Source: Symbiobacterium sp. (GTDB lineage Bacteria > Bacillota > Sulfobacillia > UBA995 > UBA9673). Taken from it: DNA of 64,000 nt. The translations under genes and the position numbers were made by a program. The notes under the pieces were generated by a model. It made no database searches and was not told the DNA's origin. It saw only the letters and a list, made by a program, of their open reading frames with translations. Below are positions 16,507-23,324 of this stretch, in pieces (the stretch's first letter is position 1; every line of letters begins with the position of its first letter). The stretch spans positions 8,760 through 72,759 of the forward strand of contig DYFB01000037.1 in NCBI GenBank assembly GCA_020725405.1. Reading direction: 5' to 3'.

Positions 16507-17771
16507 TCGGCCGGGATGCTGCACTCGGACGCAGGATTCTGTCTGTCGGGGAGCTCACTTCCATTGTGAAGGGGCTCCTCGACTCTGAACCCGTCCTGGC
16601 CGACGTCTGGGTCCGGGGAGAGATATCCAACTTCCGCCACCACTCGTCGGGCCACATGTACTTCACTCTGAAGGACAGCGTGGCCCAGATACGAGCGGTG
16701 ATGTTCCGGGGAGACAACCAGAGGCTGCTCAGCCGCGGCCCGCTCTTCCGACCGACGGACGGCCTCAAGATTATCGCCCGCGGGCACGTCAGCGTCTACG
16801 AGCGGGACGGCCAGTACCAGCTCTACGTCAGGGAGATGCAGCCCGACGGGGTCGGCTCTCTCTACCTCGCCTTCGAGCAGCTCAAGGCCAAGCTGGCCGC
16901 TGAGGGGCTGTTCGATCAGGCCGCGAAGCGAGAGCTGCCGCTCGTCCCGCGGCGCGTCGGCGTGGTCACTTCGCCGACAGGCGCGGCCCTGCGCGACATC
17001 ATCACCGTGGCCCGGCGTCGCTACCCCAACGTCCACCTCGTTCTCTCGCCGGCCGCGGTCCAGGGCGAGGGGGCGGCGGCCGATCTCATCCGGGCGCTGG
17101 GGCTCCTTGACGAGCGGGACGACATCGACGTGATCATCCTCGCCCGGGGAGGCGGCTCCATCGAGGAGCTCTGGGCCTTCAACGACGAGGGCCTGGCCAG
17201 GGCGATCCGGGCGGCGCGGCACCCGGTGGTCACCGGAGTGGGGCACGAGACGGACGTGACGATCGCCGACCTCGCGGCCGACCGGCGGGCGGCCACCCCG
17301 TCGAGCGCCGCCGAGCTCGTCGTGCCGGCCAAAGCCGAGCTGGCCCGGGCGGTGGGGGTCCTCACCGGACGCCTGGAGCGGGCCTGCCGGGGCTTTGTCG
17401 ACCGGCGGCGGGAGGCCGCGGCGAAGCTCGCGGCCGCGGCCGTCCTGAGCTACCCCGAACGCCTGCTCGAGGCCCGCCGGCAGCGGGTGGACGACCTCGC
17501 GGCGGACCTGCGGGGAGTGATGGAGCGGTTCCTGGAAAGGCTTCGTCTCAGGCGGGACGCCCTGGCCGGCCGCCTGGACGCCCTGAGTCCCCTGGCCATC
17601 CTTACCCGGGGCTACGCCCTGTGCCGCCGGAGCGACGACGGGCGGGTGGTGTCCTCGGTGACGGCGGTGGCCCCCGGGGAGAGAGTCGATGTGCTGGTGT
17701 CCGACGGCCGCCTCGAGTGCGACGTCCGTGCGGTCGAGGGTGGGGTCGTGGGCCCGGAGGGAGGCGAATAG
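16503..17771 (+). CDS. xseA: Exodeoxyribonuclease VII large subunit; probable CTG start overlapping folD stop (first canonical start is 16566)
   Basis: [43 protein letters not shown]; conserved ILSVGELT lies upstream of 16566. Confidence 0.93.
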
Positions 17772-17773
17772 AC

Positions 17774-18052
17774 ATGACCGGAAGCGATGCGGCCGCCGGG
17801 GCGGCCGGGACCGAGATGTCGTTCGAGGACGCCCTCAGGCGTCTCGAGGAGGTTGTCGGGGAGCTCGAACGGGGCGGCCAGACCCTCAACGAGGCGCTTG
17901 GCCTCTTCGAGGAAGGCATCCGCCTCTCACGGACACTCACGGCCAAGCTGGACGCGGCCGAGGCCCGGATAGACCGGATAGTCGAGACCGCCTCCGGCGC
18001 GACGCGGCTCGAGCCGTTTGAGAACGACGAGGATGGGGGGTTAGAGCGGTGA
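17774..18052 (+). CDS. xseB: Exodeoxyribonuclease VII small subunit
   Basis: SFEDAL.RLEEVV.ELE.G..TL.EAL.LFEEG. Confidence 0.95.
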   Translation: MTGSDAAAGAAGTEMSFEDALRRLEEVVGELERGGQTLNEALGLFEEGIRLSRTLTAKLDAAEARIDRIVETASGATRLEPFENDEDGGLER

Positions 18053-18915
18053 CCGGAAGCATCGCCGAGGCGTACGGCCGCAGGCTGGCTTTGGTGAACT
18101 CCGGGCTCGAGGCCGTCCTCCCGCCCGCGGGTCGTGAACCCCGCCGGCTGCACGAGGCCATGAGGCACGCCGTCTTCGGCGGCGGCGGCGGGAAGCGGCT
18201 GCGGCCCGTTCTGCTTCTCTCGGCGGCCGCCGACCTCGGCGTGGCTGACGACCGCGCTCTTCCGGCGGCCCTGGCTCTCGAGCTGGTCCACTGCTACTCC
18301 CTCGTCCACGACGATCTCCCCTGCATGGATGACGCCGGCGAACGGCGCGGGGCGCCGTCGGTTCACGCCGCCTTCGGGTACGCCGTGGCCCTTCTGGCCG
18401 GCGACGCTCTCCTGACTCAGGCCTTTGAGATTCTCGGGCGGGCGGCGAACTCCGGTCTGCCCCGCCCGGGCGAGCTCCTGGTCGAACTGGCCACGGCCGC
18501 CGGGAGCGGCGGGATGGTCGGCGGGCAGGACCTCGACCTCGCTCTGGGCGAAGGCGGGGCCGGGCCGGCTGGTCCCGACCTGGTCTTGCGCGTTCATCGA
18601 ATGAAAACGGCGCCTCTTTACGGTTTCGCTCTGGTCGCCCCGGCCCATCTCGCCGGGGTCTCCGCGGCCGAAGTCCGGCGCTGGAGAGAAGCCGGGGTCA
18701 ACTTCGGCCTGGCCTTCCAGGCCGCGGACGACCTTCGGGACGCCAGCGAGGACCGGCGGGCCCCGAATCTGGCCAAGGCTGCGGGAACGGCCCGGGCCCG
18801 CGAGATGGCCCGGGAATCCCTGCGAGAGTGCGAGGCAGCCCTCATCGACCTCGCCGGCCTGGAGTCCGGGACCTTGGCCCTCGTCCGGGCCGCGGCGCGG
18901 GAGATGGGGCTCTAG
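18049..18915 (+). CDS. ispA: Farnesyl/geranylgeranyl diphosphate synthase
   Basis: GKRLRP, SLVHDDLPCMDD...RRG, GDALL, GGQ.LD, FQAADDLRD. Confidence 0.93.
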   Translation: MTGSIAEAYGRRLALVNSGLEAVLPPAGREPRRLHEAMRHAVFGGGGGKRLRPVLLLSAAADLGVADDRALPAALALELVHCYSLVHDDLPCMDDAGERRGAPSVHAAFGYAVALLAGDALLTQAFEILGRAANSGLPRPGELLVELATAAGSGGMVGGQDLDLALGEGGAGPAGPDLVLRVHRMKTAPLYGFALVAPAHLAGVSAAEVRRWREAGVNFGLAFQAADDLRDASEDRRAPNLAKAAGTARAREMARESLRECEAALIDLAGLESGTLALVRAAAREMGL

Positions 18916-18963
18916 GGGACCTCTAGAGGGCCCCAAGCGTGCTTTTTCGCCGGCGACCGCTCG

Positions 18964-18972
18964 TGCTATAAT
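18964..18972 (+). promoter_or_regulatory. Extended -10 sigma-A promoter (TGcTATAAT) upstream of OLE RNA
   Basis: Perfect TG-n-TATAAT in a ~70% GC context; -35 weak (ttttcg). Confidence 0.7.
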
Positions 18973-19049
18973 GGAGCCGCTCGTCAGGACGACAGCCCGG
19001 GCAGCGGCCTGCGGCTCCGGACCCGACGGGCTGACAAGATGATAGCGTT

Positions 19050-19652
19050 GGGAGGCTGGTGGCGCAGTATCCTAGTCGGTGCCGTCGCTTATAAGGGCGG
19101 GGCTAAAAATCCGCCAAGGGCACATCGATGAAGTTCCTGGTGCTGGCCTGCGACGCCCAGTCGCGGGTTGGTGCTGGGAGTTAAGGAGCGGGGGCAGCCC
19201 GCAAAGGCATGTGGGTGGGACCCTCGCTTCGCGGAGACCCAAGGCTCGTGGTCTGGTCTAGTGGGCCGGCTACGACTTGGGGTGGAACCTGCATCCGGGC
19301 GCAGACTGGGTGCAGCGTAGCCTGCCTTGAGCGGCGGTGGCGGACGGTCGTCCACGAGGTCCGCGTCCATGGGCCCAGGACGGGACCTGGTTCGATACGA
19401 CCCAAAACCATCGTTCGCAAAAAAGGCTAAGAAGCGGTCAGCACCGCCGAGGAAAACTCCTAGGCTGTTCAGCATCCTGAGGCGAACCGGGGATTACAGT
19501 GTGCTCTAAGTGGTAATCCAGCTCCGTCCTGGGCAACCGGACGGGGGCCTCGTAAAGGGAAACCGCCCCGGCGGTAACGCTTGGGTGAGGCTTGGGAAAT
19601 CCTGCTGGACCTAAGACACAACGTTTACTCGGTCCGCTGCCACCTGACTCTC
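19050..19652 (+). ncRNA. ole: OLE (ornate, large, extremophilic) RNA, ~603 nt
   Basis: Between ispA and oapA-dxs; OLE-type blocks AAATCCGCCAAGGGCACATCGATGAAGTTCCTGGTGCTGGC, GCTGGGAGTTAAG, GGATTACAGTGTGCTCTAAGTGGTAATCC; terminal pairing ggtggc(19058-63)/gccacc(19639-44) and gggag/ctctc; several GNRA-capped hairpins; ends approximate. Confidence 0.92.
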
Positions 19653-19677
19653 AATCTCTTGAAAGGTGACCTGAGGC

Positions 19678-20295
19678 TTGCCACATCCGAACCGGAGAGA
19701 GGGCCTGGCCAGCGACGTGCGACGGCTGGCCGGGGTCTTCCTGACCACGTTCGTGCTGGCCGTAGCGTTCTCCCTCCTCTCCGACACCGTCCTGCGGAAG
19801 ACTACGATTCTCCTGGCGACGCTCGTCCTGGCGGTCATAATCCTCGTCGGCATCCTCGCCGACATCGTGGGGTTGGCCGTAGCTACGGCGGGGCGCGCGC
19901 CGCTGAACGCGATGGCGGCGAAGAAAGTGCCGGGGGCCCGCCAGGGACTCCGGCTCGTCAGGAACGCGCCCCGCGTCGCCACCATCTTCAACGACCTCGT
20001 CGGCGACATTTGCGGGACGGTGAGCGGCGCGGCCGGAGCGGCCATCGTCTTCCGGGTGGCCCTAAGCCGCCCCGGCGTCGACGAGGGGCTCTGGACGGTC
20101 CTCCTGGTCTCGGTCATCGCCGCCCTCACCGTCGGCGGCAAGGCCCTGGGGAAGCGCATCGCCCTGGTGAACTCGGACCGAATAGTCCACCAGCTTGGGA
20201 AGATTCTGTGGTGGCTTGAAGAACACCTGGGTCTCGTCGTACTGGCTGAGCCAGCGACCCGCCGGGCGCCGAGGAGGAGGACCAACTCTTCTTGA
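19678..20295 (+). CDS. oapA: OLE-associated membrane protein A
   Basis: 4 TM; GILADIVGLAV, AMAAKKVPGA, NDLVGDICG.VSG, ALTVGGKALGK; immediately downstream of ole. Confidence 0.9.
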   Translation: MPHPNRREGLASDVRRLAGVFLTTFVLAVAFSLLSDTVLRKTTILLATLVLAVIILVGILADIVGLAVATAGRAPLNAMAAKKVPGARQGLRLVRNAPRVATIFNDLVGDICGTVSGAAGAAIVFRVALSRPGVDEGLWTVLLVSVIAALTVGGKALGKRIALVNSDRIVHQLGKILWWLEEHLGLVVLAEPATRRAPRRRTNSS

Positions 20296-22436
20296 GCGAC
20301 GCGATAACGTCTGCTGCTGCGCCTGGTGAAAAAACCGCGGCCGCCGGCCCTAGCCCCGGCAGACCCGCCGGGGGGACAAGCCCGGGGCGGGGATCGGCCC
20401 CTCCGACCCCCGGACGACGCGCTTCCGATGAGGAAACCGCAGCCGGGGTTCTTGCCGGCCTGCGCGGTCCCGAGGACCTCAAGGCCCTGCCGGCCGCTAG
20501 GCTCCCCGAGCTCGCCGCGGAGATACGCCGGCGGATCATCGATACGGTGTCGCGGACAGGTGGGCACCTCGCACCGAACCTCGGAGTCGTGGAGCTGACC
20601 ATTGCTCTGCACCGCGTGTTCTCGAGCCCGCGCGACCGCATCATCTGGGATGTGGGGCACCAGACCTACGCCCACAAGCTTCTGACGGGCCGCGCCGAGC
20701 GATTCAACACCCTCCGGCAGGAGAACGGCCTCTCCGGGTTCCCGCGGCGCTCTGAGAGCCCTCACGATGTCTTCGAGACCGGCCACGCCAGTACCTCGGT
20801 CTCGGCTGCGCTCGGCATCGCGGCCGCGCGCGATCTCAAGCGGGACGACTACTCGGTCGTGGCCGTTATCGGCGACGGAGCCCTGACCGGGGGGATGGCC
20901 TTCGAGGCCCTGAACAACGCGGGCCACATGAAGACGCACCTCATCGTCGTCCTGAACGATAACGAGCTCTCCTACGGGCCGACCGTGGGTGGCCTGGCCT
21001 CCCATCTGAGCCGCCTCCGCTCCCATCCGGTCTACTTCCGGGTTAGGCGCGACCTCGAGTCCTTCGTGAAGAACCTTCCTCTCATTGGACCGGCCCTCTA
21101 CTACCTGGGCGGGCGGATCAAGGGCAGCGTGAAGTACCTCGTCGTCCCCGGCATCCTCTTCGAGGAGCTCGGCTTCACCTACCTCGGGCCCGTGGACGGG
21201 CACAACCTAGCCCAGCTCGAGGAGTTCCTGGAGCGGGCCAAGATGATCCGCGGGCCGGCGTTCGTCCACGTCATAACCAAGAAAGGGAAGGGCTACCCTC
21301 CGGCCGAGGCCGACCCGGACCGCTTCCACGGCATCGGGCCGTTTGACATTGCCACCGGCCTCGACCTGGCCGAGCCTCCGATCACTGGACCTAACGGCCC
21401 GTCGACAGCCGTCAACAACCACGGACCCTCGAGCGCCCTGAACAGCCACGCGCTGCCGCGTCCCACCTACACGCAGGTCTTCGGACAGACCCTGCTCGAG
21501 CTCGGAAGCCGTGACGACCGCATCGTGGCCATTACCGCGGCCATGGCGTCGAGCACGGGGGTCCTGCCCTTCGCCCGCTCCTTCCCCAAGCGCTGGTTCG
21601 ACGTCGGCATCTCCGAGCAGCATGCGGTGACCTTCGCCGCCGGCCTGGCCGCCGAGGGGCTTAGGCCGGTGGTGGCCGTCTACTCCACCTTCCTCCAGCG
21701 TGCCTATGACCAGATCCTGCACGATGTCTGTCTCCAGCGGCTGCCGGTGACGTTCGTCCTCGACCGCGGGGGGCTCGTCGGCGCCGACGGGCCGACCCAT
21801 CACGGCGCCTACGACCTCAGCTACCTTCGGGCCATGCCGGGGATGGTGGTCATGGCCCCGAAGGACGAGAACGAGCTCAGGCACATGCTCAAGACAGCCC
21901 TGTACCTCGGGGGCCCCGCGGCCGTCCGCTACCCGCGGGGCCCGGGCCCCGGGACGCTGGCGGAGGGCGAGCCGCGGCGTCTGGAGGTCGGGCGGGCGGA
22001 GATCCTGCGGGATGGCGGCGACCTGGCCATCGTCGCCATAGGCTCCATGGTCGTTCCCTCCCTGGAAGCGGCGGAGCGGCTGGGGACCGCGGGCCTCCGG
22101 GCGGCGGTCGTCAACGCCCGCTTCGCCGCACCGGTGGACGGGAACCTAATCGTCCGGCTGGCCCGCGAGACGGGGAGAATCCTGACCGTGGAGGAGAACG
22201 TGGCCAAGGGCGGCTTCGGGGCGGCGGTGGTCGAGACCTTGACCGGGGCGGGGCTGACCGTCGGCGTCAAGGGGGTCCGGGTCAGGCGACTGGCCCTCCC
22301 CGATGAGCCCGTGGAGCACGGCCGGGCCGAGACCCTCCGCCGCCGGTACGGGCTCGACGCCGAGGGCATCGCCCGGGCGGCGGCCGCCCTGGTCCGGGAC
22401 GAGGCCGGCGCGGTTGACGGAGGTCGGCGCGGCTGA
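20292..22436 (+). CDS. dxs: 1-deoxy-D-xylulose-5-phosphate synthase with N-terminal extension and linker insertion
   Basis: GGHLAPNLG, WDVGHQ.Y.HK, GDGALTGG, GISEQHA, YSTFLQRAYDQ..HDV, DGPTHHG. Confidence 0.97.
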   Translation: MSDAITSAAAPGEKTAAAGPSPGRPAGGTSPGRGSAPPTPGRRASDEETAAGVLAGLRGPEDLKALPAARLPELAAEIRRRIIDTVSRTGGHLAPNLGVVELTIALHRVFSSPRDRIIWDVGHQTYAHKLLTGRAERFNTLRQENGLSGFPRRSESPHDVFETGHASTSVSAALGIAAARDLKRDDYSVVAVIGDGALTGGMAFEALNNAGHMKTHLIVVLNDNELSYGPTVGGLASHLSRLRSHPVYFRVRRDLESFVKNLPLIGPALYYLGGRIKGSVKYLVVPGILFEELGFTYLGPVDGHNLAQLEEFLERAKMIRGPAFVHVITKKGKGYPPAEADPDRFHGIGPFDIATGLDLAEPPITGPNGPSTAVNNHGPSSALNSHALPRPTYTQVFGQTLLELGSRDDRIVAITAAMASSTGVLPFARSFPKRWFDVGISEQHAVTFAAGLAAEGLRPVVAVYSTFLQRAYDQILHDVCLQRLPVTFVLDRGGLVGADGPTHHGAYDLSYLRAMPGMVVMAPKDENELRHMLKTALYLGGPAAVRYPRGPGPGTLAEGEPRRLEVGRAEILRDGGDLAIVAIGSMVVPSLEAAERLGTAGLRAAVVNARFAAPVDGNLIVRLARETGRILTVEENVAKGGFGAAVVETLTGAGLTVGVKGVRVRRLALPDEPVEHGRAETLRRRYGLDAEGIARAAAALVRDEAGAVDGGRRG

Positions 22437-22451: not shown

Positions 22452-23324
22452 GTGGGGGCTCGGGGAGACGGACCTGACCGGCGCAGGCTCGACGCCCTCC
22501 TCGTCGAACGAGGCCTGGCGGCGAGCCGGACCGAGGCCCAGGCGCTCGTAGTGGCCGGACGCGTCCGCGCCGGAGGTCGGGCCGCGGACAAGCCCGGACG
22601 CCGCTACCCGGCCTCGGTCGACCTCGAGGTCGAGCGTCCCCCGCACCGCTACGTCTCCCGCGGCGGCCTCAAGCTGGAGAAAGCCCTCGACCAGTTCGGA
22701 CTCGACGTGACCGGCCTCTCGTGCCTCGACGTCGGGGCGTCGACCGGCGGATTCACCGACTGCCTCCTCCAGCGCGGGGCCGGGCGGGTCTACGCCGTGG
22801 ACGTAGGCTACGGTCTTCTGGCCTGGAAGCTCAGGAGCGACGACCGGGTCGTCCCCCTCGACCGCACCAACGCACGCTATCTCGACCGCGAGTCTTTCCG
22901 GCGGGCGGTCGAGGCCCAGGGGCGCGACCTGGTCTGGCCGGCTCTGGCCACGATCGACGTCTCCTTCATCTCCCTCCTTAAGGTCGCCCCCGCCGTGGTC
23001 GGGCTTCTGGAGCCTCCCTGGCAGATCATCGCTCTCGTCAAGCCGCAGTTCGAGGCTGGGCGGACAAAGGTCGGGTCGGGAGGGGTGGTCCGGGACCCGG
23101 AGACCCACGTCGGGGTCCTGGAGAAGGTGACGGCCGGCCTGGCGGCGATAGGACCGGCCGACGTCGCCGGCCTCACGCCCTCGCCCGTCCGCGGCCCGGA
23201 GGGGAACGTCGAGTACCTCCTCTGGCTCGTCGGCCCCTCCGACCGGCCCGAAGGGGGGCACCCCGCACCCGAGGCGATCCGGAAGGCCGTCTCGGACGGT
23301 CTGGCCGTCGGGCCCGTCCCCTAG
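22452..23324 (+). CDS. tlyA: TlyA/YqxC family RNA methyltransferase
   Basis: RLDALLV, YVSRGGLKLEKAL, DVGASTGGFTDCLLQ, DVSFISL, LVKPQFE, GNVEYL. Confidence 0.95.
   Translation: MGARGDGPDRRRLDALLVERGLAASRTEAQALVVAGRVRAGGRAADKPGRRYPASVDLEVERPPHRYVSRGGLKLEKALDQFGLDVTGLSCLDVGASTGGFTDCLLQRGAGRVYAVDVGYGLLAWKLRSDDRVVPLDRTNARYLDRESFRRAVEAQGRDLVWPALATIDVSFISLLKVAPAVVGLLEPPWQIIALVKPQFEAGRTKVGSGGVVRDPETHVGVLEKVTAGLAAIGPADVAGLTPSPVRGPEGNVEYLLWLVGPSDRPEGGHPAPEAIRKAVSDGLAVGPVP

Follow-up and report, generated by a model that had tools for sequence, protein, structure and literature searches.

OLE RNA, a large structured non-coding RNA, and OapA, the membrane protein encoded beside it, were described between 2006 and 2011. 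Here we examine the OLE/OapA locus in a 64,000-nucleotide (nt) stretch of DNA from an uncultured Symbiobacterium species (contig DYFB01000037.1, positions 8,760 to 72,759; hereafter the window, with positions counted from its first nucleotide), and compare it with the systems of Halalkalibacterium (Bacillus) halodurans, Clostridium acetobutylicum and C. botulinum, which it resembles. A GTDB-wide survey found 2,822 carriers of OLE in the Bacillota (PMC11332333). According to Block et al. (2011), as cited in PMC12265935, OapA binds OLE RNA cooperatively and brings the RNA to the membrane. Two OapA-binding regions have been published, a CUAG palindrome in P2 and a palindrome in the P4a region (PMC12265935). 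In H. halodurans, the J4a/5-P5-J5/6 region forms a k-turn bound by OapC (PMC9723947), and P13 is the binding site of OapB (PMC7936274). The helices P3 and P3.1, which typically sum to 12 base pairs (bp), link domain 1 of the RNA to domain 2 and have been proposed to span the membrane (PMC12265935), and a role in dimer formation has been assigned to the apical loop of P9 (PMC12265935, PMC12286853). Full-length OLE RNAs are defined by the presence of P7, P8, P9 and the P13 OapB site, with P13 setting them apart from variant 1 (PMC11332333). OapA itself is distinguished from CNNM domains by a DxxxD motif; in contrast to the CNNM transporters it has four transmembrane (TM) segments rather than three and lacks CBS and CorC domains, and the structure 7M1U has been reported as a match for the H. 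halodurans protein (PMC11332333).

We consider it close to certain that positions 19043-19659 of the window encode a full-length OLE RNA and that positions 19678-20295 encode its membrane partner OapA. A preliminary description of this DNA had placed an OLE RNA-OapA system at 19050-20295 and had regarded the system as known rather than new, and both statements hold. Neither of the outcomes that it had named as refuting this reading (no significant OLE covariance-model match, no OapA homology for 19678-20295) occurred, and the genome search that it had advised for oapB and oapC was positive. The locus is an ordinary, complete, full-length member of the OLE/OapA system. As a discovery it carries little weight, since any Rfam-based annotation would label it; its value lies in the data that it and its relatives add, as set out below.

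A complete OLE RNA of the full-length type

A scan of the whole window against Rfam returned a single match, to OLE (RF01071), on the forward strand at 19043-19659 (465 bits, E = 2.5e-133; gathering score 50). The match is 617 nt long, spans model positions 1-616 of 616 and is not truncated. The same search found one copy in the whole 2.23-Mb genome, and an OLE search of 14 control genomes gave no match. When the Rfam model was mapped onto this RNA, 150 of its 159 pairs were canonical, and 234 of the 249 highly conserved (upper-case) consensus nucleotides (94%) were identical. Among the 15 conserved positions that differ from the consensus, two (19063 and 19639) form a compensated pair in P1. 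Folded freely, the RNA has a minimum free energy of -304.4 kcal/mol compared with -262.9 +/- 4.5 kcal/mol for shuffled sequences (z = -9.3).

The preliminary description had suggested a GC-rich and divergent copy. The first half of this suggestion stands: the GC content of the RNA is 62%, compared with 42-57% in 17 named examples. The second half we rejected, because the score falls in the middle of the 404-578 bit range of OLE RNAs from named genomes, because conserved positions are kept at the typical rate given above, and because OLE is found above threshold in 38 of 41 relatives (from the same family, order or class), for the most part in the ispA-ole-oapA-dxs order seen here, and the copies in the class look alike.

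P7, P8, P9 and the P13 OapB site are all present. As these helices, the P4a palindrome, the k-turn region and the bulge and GCAA loop of P13 are intact, we assign the RNA to the full-length type; variants 1 and 2, known from the TANB77 and RF39 clades (PMC11332333), belong to the same RNA family, and the retention of full P7-P9 and P13 here separates this copy from both. In its length class, in possessing all of the helices P1-P14 and in its gene order, the RNA is like those of H. halodurans, C. acetobutylicum and C. botulinum. It shares with them the CUAAAAAU loop of P4, the CAUCGAUG palindrome of P4a, the k-turn region, a self-complementary P9 loop, and the bulge and GNRA loop of P13.

OapA directly downstream of the RNA

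A TTG start codon 19 nt past the end of the OLE model opens a 205-codon open reading frame (ORF; 19678-20295, forward strand). Searches of sequence families gave nothing usable, and its product was placed in the OapA family on the basis of homologues, synteny and motifs. A large protein collection contained 167 homologues, some of which carry a weak precomputed match to CNNM (PF01595). Identity to the homologues in named genera is 35-50%, and the closest relatives (57-71%) all come from metagenomes. A two-motif scan of named genomes yielded 584 loci; Rfam was run on 17 of these, and in all 17 a full-length OLE RNA lies directly upstream of the protein, ending 23-182 nt before the protein match.

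The four TM segments and the GxxxD and NDLVGDICG motifs of the preliminary description could all be located. Kyte-Doolittle hydropathy peaks at residues ~17-35, 43-61, 107-129 and 137-158, and an AlphaFold2 model (mean predicted local distance difference test score, pLDDT, 84.6) places helices at 7-41, 44-70, 97-130 and 136-164. The GxxxD motif is G58-ILA-D62, and N105-DLVGDICG-113 holds the DxxxD motif as D106-LVG-D110. Residues D62, D106, G109 and D110 are invariant in 88 aligned homologues and T151-V-G-G-K155 (TVGGK) is invariant or nearly so. The loop between TM2 and TM3 (residues 63-105, 43 in all) contains seven lysines or arginines and no aspartate or glutamate, and so has the basic cluster of OapA. 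In these four TM segments, the DxxxD motif, the basic loop, a CNNM-like fold and a position directly 3' of ole, the protein resembles BH2780 of H. halodurans and CLB_RS09010 of C. botulinum; unlike those entries, it has a TTG start and a stop codon that overlaps the start of dxs.

By structure, the predicted OapA comes closest to the MpfA/CorB/CorC group (PF01595). A Foldseek search of the PDB with the model ranked the archaeal CNNM protein MtCorB first (7M1T and 7M1U; probability 1.00, E = 0.02-0.4, TM-score 0.45-0.47) and also recovered the TM domain of CorC (7CFG). The model points to a CNNM/CorB-like fold without CBS or CorC domains. We tried and rejected the reading of the ORF as an MpfA/CNNM transporter: the protein scores 14.1 bits with the Pfam CNNM model against a cut-off of 28.4 (the sole CNNM-like signal in the genome), it has no CBS or CorC domain and it is 205 residues long. 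It is related to these transporters in fold and is not a member of their family.

Helices, binding sites and covariation

Covariation was counted by projecting the structure onto a MAFFT alignment of 29 OLE sequences from the class (hereafter the 29 relatives). Across this alignment 85.9% of cells are paired, compared with 75.3% in shuffles and 38-48% when the partners are slid. Changes on both sides affect 131 of 186 pairs, a count reached in none of 500 shuffles, and the covariation score is 0.388; shuffles give 0.192, none of the 500 scoring as high, and the slid controls do not exceed 0.154. P5, P6, P8, P12, P13 and P14 are well supported; the low scores of the distal parts of P7 and P9 stem from variable tips that defeat alignment by MAFFT. 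The many indels among the relatives fall at helix tips alone, and where bases are exchanged, it is pairing rather than codons that is maintained.

In the Rfam structure line, no pairs are assigned to the first 53 and the last 21 positions, and P1, P2, P3 and P3.1 are consequently absent from the Rfam model. With the Rfam pairs enforced in ViennaRNA, the remainder folds into exactly these four helices of the published model. P1 pairs GGUGGC (19058-19063) with GCCACC (19639-19644) whether the fold is constrained or free, and the compensation noted above consists of a U-to-C change at 19063 matched by an A-to-G change at 19639. The paired termini remarked on in the preliminary description correspond to this helix, which is 99.4% paired in the 29 relatives with double changes at five of its six pairs. 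In both folds P1 is lengthened by a further 8 bp (19047-19054 with 19648-19655), a possible difference from typical OLE RNAs; this extension is not conserved in the class, where it is only 50% paired, and may be specific to the family or due to chance. In P2, the 5' strand at 19064-19075 (GCAG..CCUAG) pairs with 19460-19468, as 19064-19067 with 19465-19468 and 19071-19075 with 19460-19464, and the helix is about 99% paired in the relatives; its 5' strand contains the CUAG palindrome.

P3 (19077-19082 with 19441-19446) contributes 6 bp and P3.1 (19084-19090 with 19432-19439) contributes 7 bp and one bulge, giving a sum of 13 bp where 12 are typical. All 13 pairs change on both sides among the relatives, with 85-88% of cells paired. 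Duplexes of 11-18 bp and unrelated sequence occupy the position of P3/P3.1 in 33 of the 39 other OLE RNAs in which the anchor motifs were found.

The published binding sites are likewise in place. The P4 hairpin with its conserved CUAAAAAU loop lies at 19096-19115 and is 97.7% paired in the relatives; the palindrome CAUCGAUG of the P4a region (19123-19130) is identical to the consensus. No highly conserved consensus nucleotide is changed in the J4a/5-P5-J5/6 region (19126-19190), where P5 has 96% of its cells paired and 11 pairs that covary. P13 (19524-19544), with the one-nucleotide bulge C19529 and a GCAA loop, is 91% paired with seven covarying pairs. The GNRA caps that the preliminary description had reported are clear in two places, GCAA at 19533-19536 (P13) and GUAA at 19574-19577 (P14), and a GAAAA pentaloop is found at 19452-19456.

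The apical loop of P9 carries the palindrome UGGGCCCA (19371-19378), the predicted loop-loop (kissing) contact of the dimer. Its core is GGGCCC, in contrast to UGGCCA in the OLE consensus, and the GGGCCC type is common to most of the class. The core is self-complementary in nearly all of the 41 OLE RNAs that keep the distal P9, in the forms GGGCCC, UGGCCA, AGGCCU, CGGCCG, GAGCUC and GGCGCC; one relative (L107) has GGGCGC instead, and another (L099) is uncertain in the alignment. This persistent self-complementarity fits the published loop-loop contact and, together with the covariation of P1, P3 and P3.1, it fits the published models of the dimer and of P3 as a connector. These observations are what the locus adds: a class of ~70% GC in which OLE is nearly universal, with clean covariation for helices that Rfam leaves unannotated (P1, P3 and P3.1).

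Three relatives may bear on the dimer model in another way. Their OLE RNAs are short (566-582 nt; L084 in G005, L088 in G007 and L092 in G026) and lack the distal P9 including the self-complementary loop, and they still score 466-480 bits. If P9 is a dimer contact, these natural deletions are relevant to that model.

The preliminary description had further proposed a GGATTAC/GTAATCC stem. The inverted repeat is real, with GGAUUAC at 19491-19497 and GUAAUCC at 19513-19519 in domain 2, and its nucleotides are near-invariant. As a stem it fared less well. The Rfam consensus pairs neither arm, and the repeat is not a helix of the consensus model. Although 89.7% of cells are pairable in the 29 high-GC sequences of the class, no pair is altered on both sides in them; the variants are mostly transitions that keep G-U pairs, and an A-C mismatch is common at the sixth pair. 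A hairpin of the repeat would also require a pseudoknot with P12.1, which covaries. We regard it as improbable that GGAUUA(C) and (G)UAAUCC really pair, be it as an intramolecular pseudoknot with P12.1 or in trans between the RNAs of a dimer. If they did, the pairing would add a structural element that the secondary-structure model now in use lacks.

Further partner candidates elsewhere in the genome

The genome also encodes candidates for OapB and OapC, the two further proteins named in the preliminary description, and both sit in their usual positions in ribosomal operons. The OapB (YbzG) candidate is a 125-residue KOW-type ORF between map and infA (G000:C63; L113:1113-1490). Its best PDB match is 7k9b, 'OLE-associated protein B' (E = 7.4e-7, residues 7-89 to 5-87), followed by eL14. 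It ends in an acidic, Gly/Pro-rich, low-complexity tail of ~35 residues that is absent from the 98-residue crystal construct of H. halodurans OapB. The OapC/YbxF candidate, between rpoC and rpsL, is the single PF01248 (L7Ae-family) match in the genome. Its best PDB match is B. subtilis YbxF (3v7e, E = 4.6e-17; also 4lck, ~5e-17), the conserved glycine of GTKQT is kept, and it scores 97 bits with NF010125, under the cut-off of 113. The presence of both genes is consistent with the reading of the RNA as OLE and is not proof of it. The genome also encodes bS21. A G/C-rich OLE RNA that comes with its cognate OapA, OapB and OapC might offer a stable object for structural studies of domain 2.

A Pfam search of the genome found no MpfA-type CNNM protein, with OapA itself, at 14 bits, as the one signal; this is in line with the published anticorrelation between OLE and MpfA. 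Both of the near-complete relatives without OLE (G014 and G015) carry strong genes of the CNNM/MpfA type, two of them in tandem in G014. Within the class, however, the anticorrelation is partial, as several carriers of OLE also have a strong CNNM protein (see below).

A model for the OLE particle

The architecture and function that we propose for this particle are taken by analogy from published work on the OLE RNAs of H. halodurans and of the two clostridia. The reading of transcription, by contrast, comes from the sequence itself: it would start just downstream of the extended -10 element described below and, as no terminator intervenes, would probably continue into oapA and dxs, and the overlap of these two genes probably couples their translation. 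On the published pattern, the RNA would fold into domain 1 (P4-P9) and domain 2 (P1, P2 and P10-P15), joined by P3/P3.1, and would form a homodimer in part through the self-complementary P9 loop, here GGGCCC. OapA dimers on the P2 and P4a palindromes could hold the RNA at the membrane, with OapB on P13 and OapC on the P5 k-turn completing the particle. Such a particle may help cells to cope with excess Mg2+, cold, short-chain alcohols and poor carbon sources. We favor a mechanism in which the RNA would serve as the regulatory or sensing module of a CNNM-like OapA, standing in for the CBS and CorC domains that Mg2+ exporters of the MpfA type have.

How such a particle is arranged with respect to the membrane is a separate matter. 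An arrangement in which it lies wholly on the cytoplasmic face, with P3/P3.1 as a mere connector that does not cross the bilayer, is a serious contender to which we give somewhat less than an even chance. It is what would conventionally be expected of a charged RNA and is among the alternative scenarios of PMC12265935, a study that offers no direct topological proof, and the OapB protein that binds domain 2 starts without a signal peptide. Set against this are the cryo-electron microscopy structures, in which P3 projects ~50 Å at ~90 degrees from a flat face beside the OapA site (PMC12265935, PMC12286853), and the 13 bp of P3 and P3.1 in the RNA described here, a length class kept by covariation. 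This fits a constraint on length, although any rigid connector would be expected to show the same conservation.

Alternative readings of the locus

Several points weigh against the identification of the locus as a working OLE/OapA system and are gathered here. On its own, the 205-residue ORF gave no thresholded match when searched by sequence against Pfam, NCBIfam and the PDB, and the CorB fold match of its model is weak by E-value (0.02, TM-score 0.46). The match of the OapB candidate reaches a modest 33 bits, and homologues of OapB and OapC also occur in species without OLE (PMC7936274, PMC9723947). A strong CNNM protein accompanies OLE in 7 of the 38 OLE-bearing relatives (G002, G006, G009, G030, G033, G037 and G038). 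The expression of the RNA, its ends and its co-transcription with oapA are read from the sequence.

Three other readings of the locus itself were weighed. One is that the RNA is a decayed, non-functional relic kept by its linkage to ispA and dxs. Nothing speaks for it specifically, although nine of the 159 model pairs are non-canonical or gapped and 15 conserved positions differ. Named, cultured carriers span a range of scores that includes this one, the differences at 19063 and 19639 make up a compensated P1 pair, every protein-binding element and the partner genes are intact, and the strong covariation in the class shows that selection still acts on the fold. We consider decay very improbable.

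A second reading would make the RNA a cis-acting 5' leader of oapA-dxs, such as a riboswitch or attenuator, rather than a stand-alone RNA. The lack of a terminator before oapA and a Shine-Dalgarno sequence for oapA that begins 3 nt past the end of the OLE model are as expected of a leader; however, no riboswitch family matches, OLE has been shown to act in trans as a ribonucleoprotein (PMC12265935), and in two relatives dxs comes straight after the RNA, without an adjoining oapA. We give a leader as little credence as a relic. In these two relatives (L087, G017:C136, and L091, G036:C54) the fate of oapA differs: in G036 a different contig carries an OapA-like ORF (C65:13832-14227) that matches CNNM weakly, and in G017 no OapA-like match was found at E <= 0.001. 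In the class as a whole, oapA lies directly 3' of OLE in 26 of the 29 relatives.

Finally, that the gap codes for a protein, for example through a 128-residue ORF on the minus strand (19089-19475) or a 212-residue alternative frame (19581-20219), is the least credible reading of all. Open frames exist, as is expected at 62-70% GC, but those between the ispA stop and the oapA start at 19678 are mechanical ORFs of 60-128 residues, the four that were searched against Pfam gave no match, as the preliminary description had anticipated in finding no credible coding sequence here, and the relatives vary at helix tips and in paired substitutions as noted above.

Gene neighbourhood, host and expression signals

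The gene order in the window is ispA-ole-oapA-dxs-tlyA, all on the forward strand, a neighbourhood that has been published for ole (PMC12265935), and the host belongs to the Bacillota. The farnesyl diphosphate synthase gene of the ispA type, the usual upstream neighbour of ole, occupies 18049-18915 (PF00348, E = 3.5e-35), with its stop codon at 18913-18915; it reaches 201.5 bits with NF045485 (FPPsyn, E = 1.5e-59), under the curated cut-off of 275. An ispA homologue lies within 1.5 kb upstream of OLE at 22 of the 29 relatives' loci. Further upstream, xseA (16566-17771) flanks ispA, and a 61-residue ORF at 17787-17972 stands between them in the expected position of xseB; it had no match in Pfam or NCBIfam at E <= 0.01. 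Downstream of oapA lie dxs (20292-22436; TIGR00204, 787.8 bits) and a tlyA-family rRNA methyltransferase gene, a usual downstream neighbour (22452-23324; TIGR00478, 229.5 bits).

The genome (2.23 Mb in 97 contigs, 95% complete, 69.7% GC) comes from an uncultured member of the Bacillota. A search of it for Omp85/BamA found none, and the host therefore looks monoderm. We had considered a diderm host, in which OLE would be surprising given its published link to the Gram-positive envelope, and dropped this idea on the same ground. The locus sits on an 88.6-kb contig; because the GC content of this contig is typical of the genome and the gene order recurs in relatives at the level of the family, a mis-assembled contaminant is unlikely.

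A perfect extended -10 element, TGCTATAAT (18964-18972), lies ~70 nt upstream of the start of the OLE model and is probably the ole promoter. There are 28 TGNTATAAT sites in the genome on both strands together, and 0.0009 would be expected per 150 nt; a perfect TGNTATAAT occurs within ~85 nt upstream of OLE in 14 of 28 class relatives and a near-match in four more. A standard scan for -35/-10 promoters found nothing upstream of OLE, because the -35 region is poor. A promoter at this distance would add some 60-70 nt of 5' leader to the transcript. Most relatives have the promoter much nearer to P1, and the leader here is longer; it holds an 8-bp hairpin of GGAGCCGC (18974-18981) with GCGGCUCC (19012-19019).

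The Shine-Dalgarno sequence of oapA is AAAGGUGA (19662-19669), and a terminator scan found no terminator on the forward strand between OLE and oapA. The TGA stop of oapA (20293-20295) overlaps the TTG start of dxs (20292-20294), which confirms the TTGA overlap seen earlier (20292-20295), and GAGGAGGAGGA (20271-20281) lies 10 nt upstream of the TTG. Given these features, co-transcription is plausible, and so is translational coupling of oapA and dxs through the 4-nt overlap, which the preliminary description had stated as fact. Dxs has a Pro/Gly/Ala-rich N-terminal extension of ~50 residues (20292-20460), with the Pfam match beginning at residue 56; as no canonical in-frame start other than the TTG precedes codon 86, the extension seems real. 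Directly 3' of the ispA stop is a 10-nt palindrome, CCTCTAGAGG (18920-18929), followed by a run of five T at 18943-18947; the scan predicted no terminator in this region (18916-18949).

Two further OLE RNAs stood out among those collected. One relative (L099, G030:C1), whose genome is complete at 3.57 Mb, has an RNA of 676 nt with an insertion of ~30 nt in the P6 region. The other, on PWYO01000232.1 (L034), a contig of a metagenome-assembled genome labelled 'Actinomycetota bacterium', is a full-length OLE RNA (485 bits) accompanied by oapA, and probably reflects mis-binning or horizontal transfer; 24 OLE matches outside the Bacillota are mentioned in PMC11332333.

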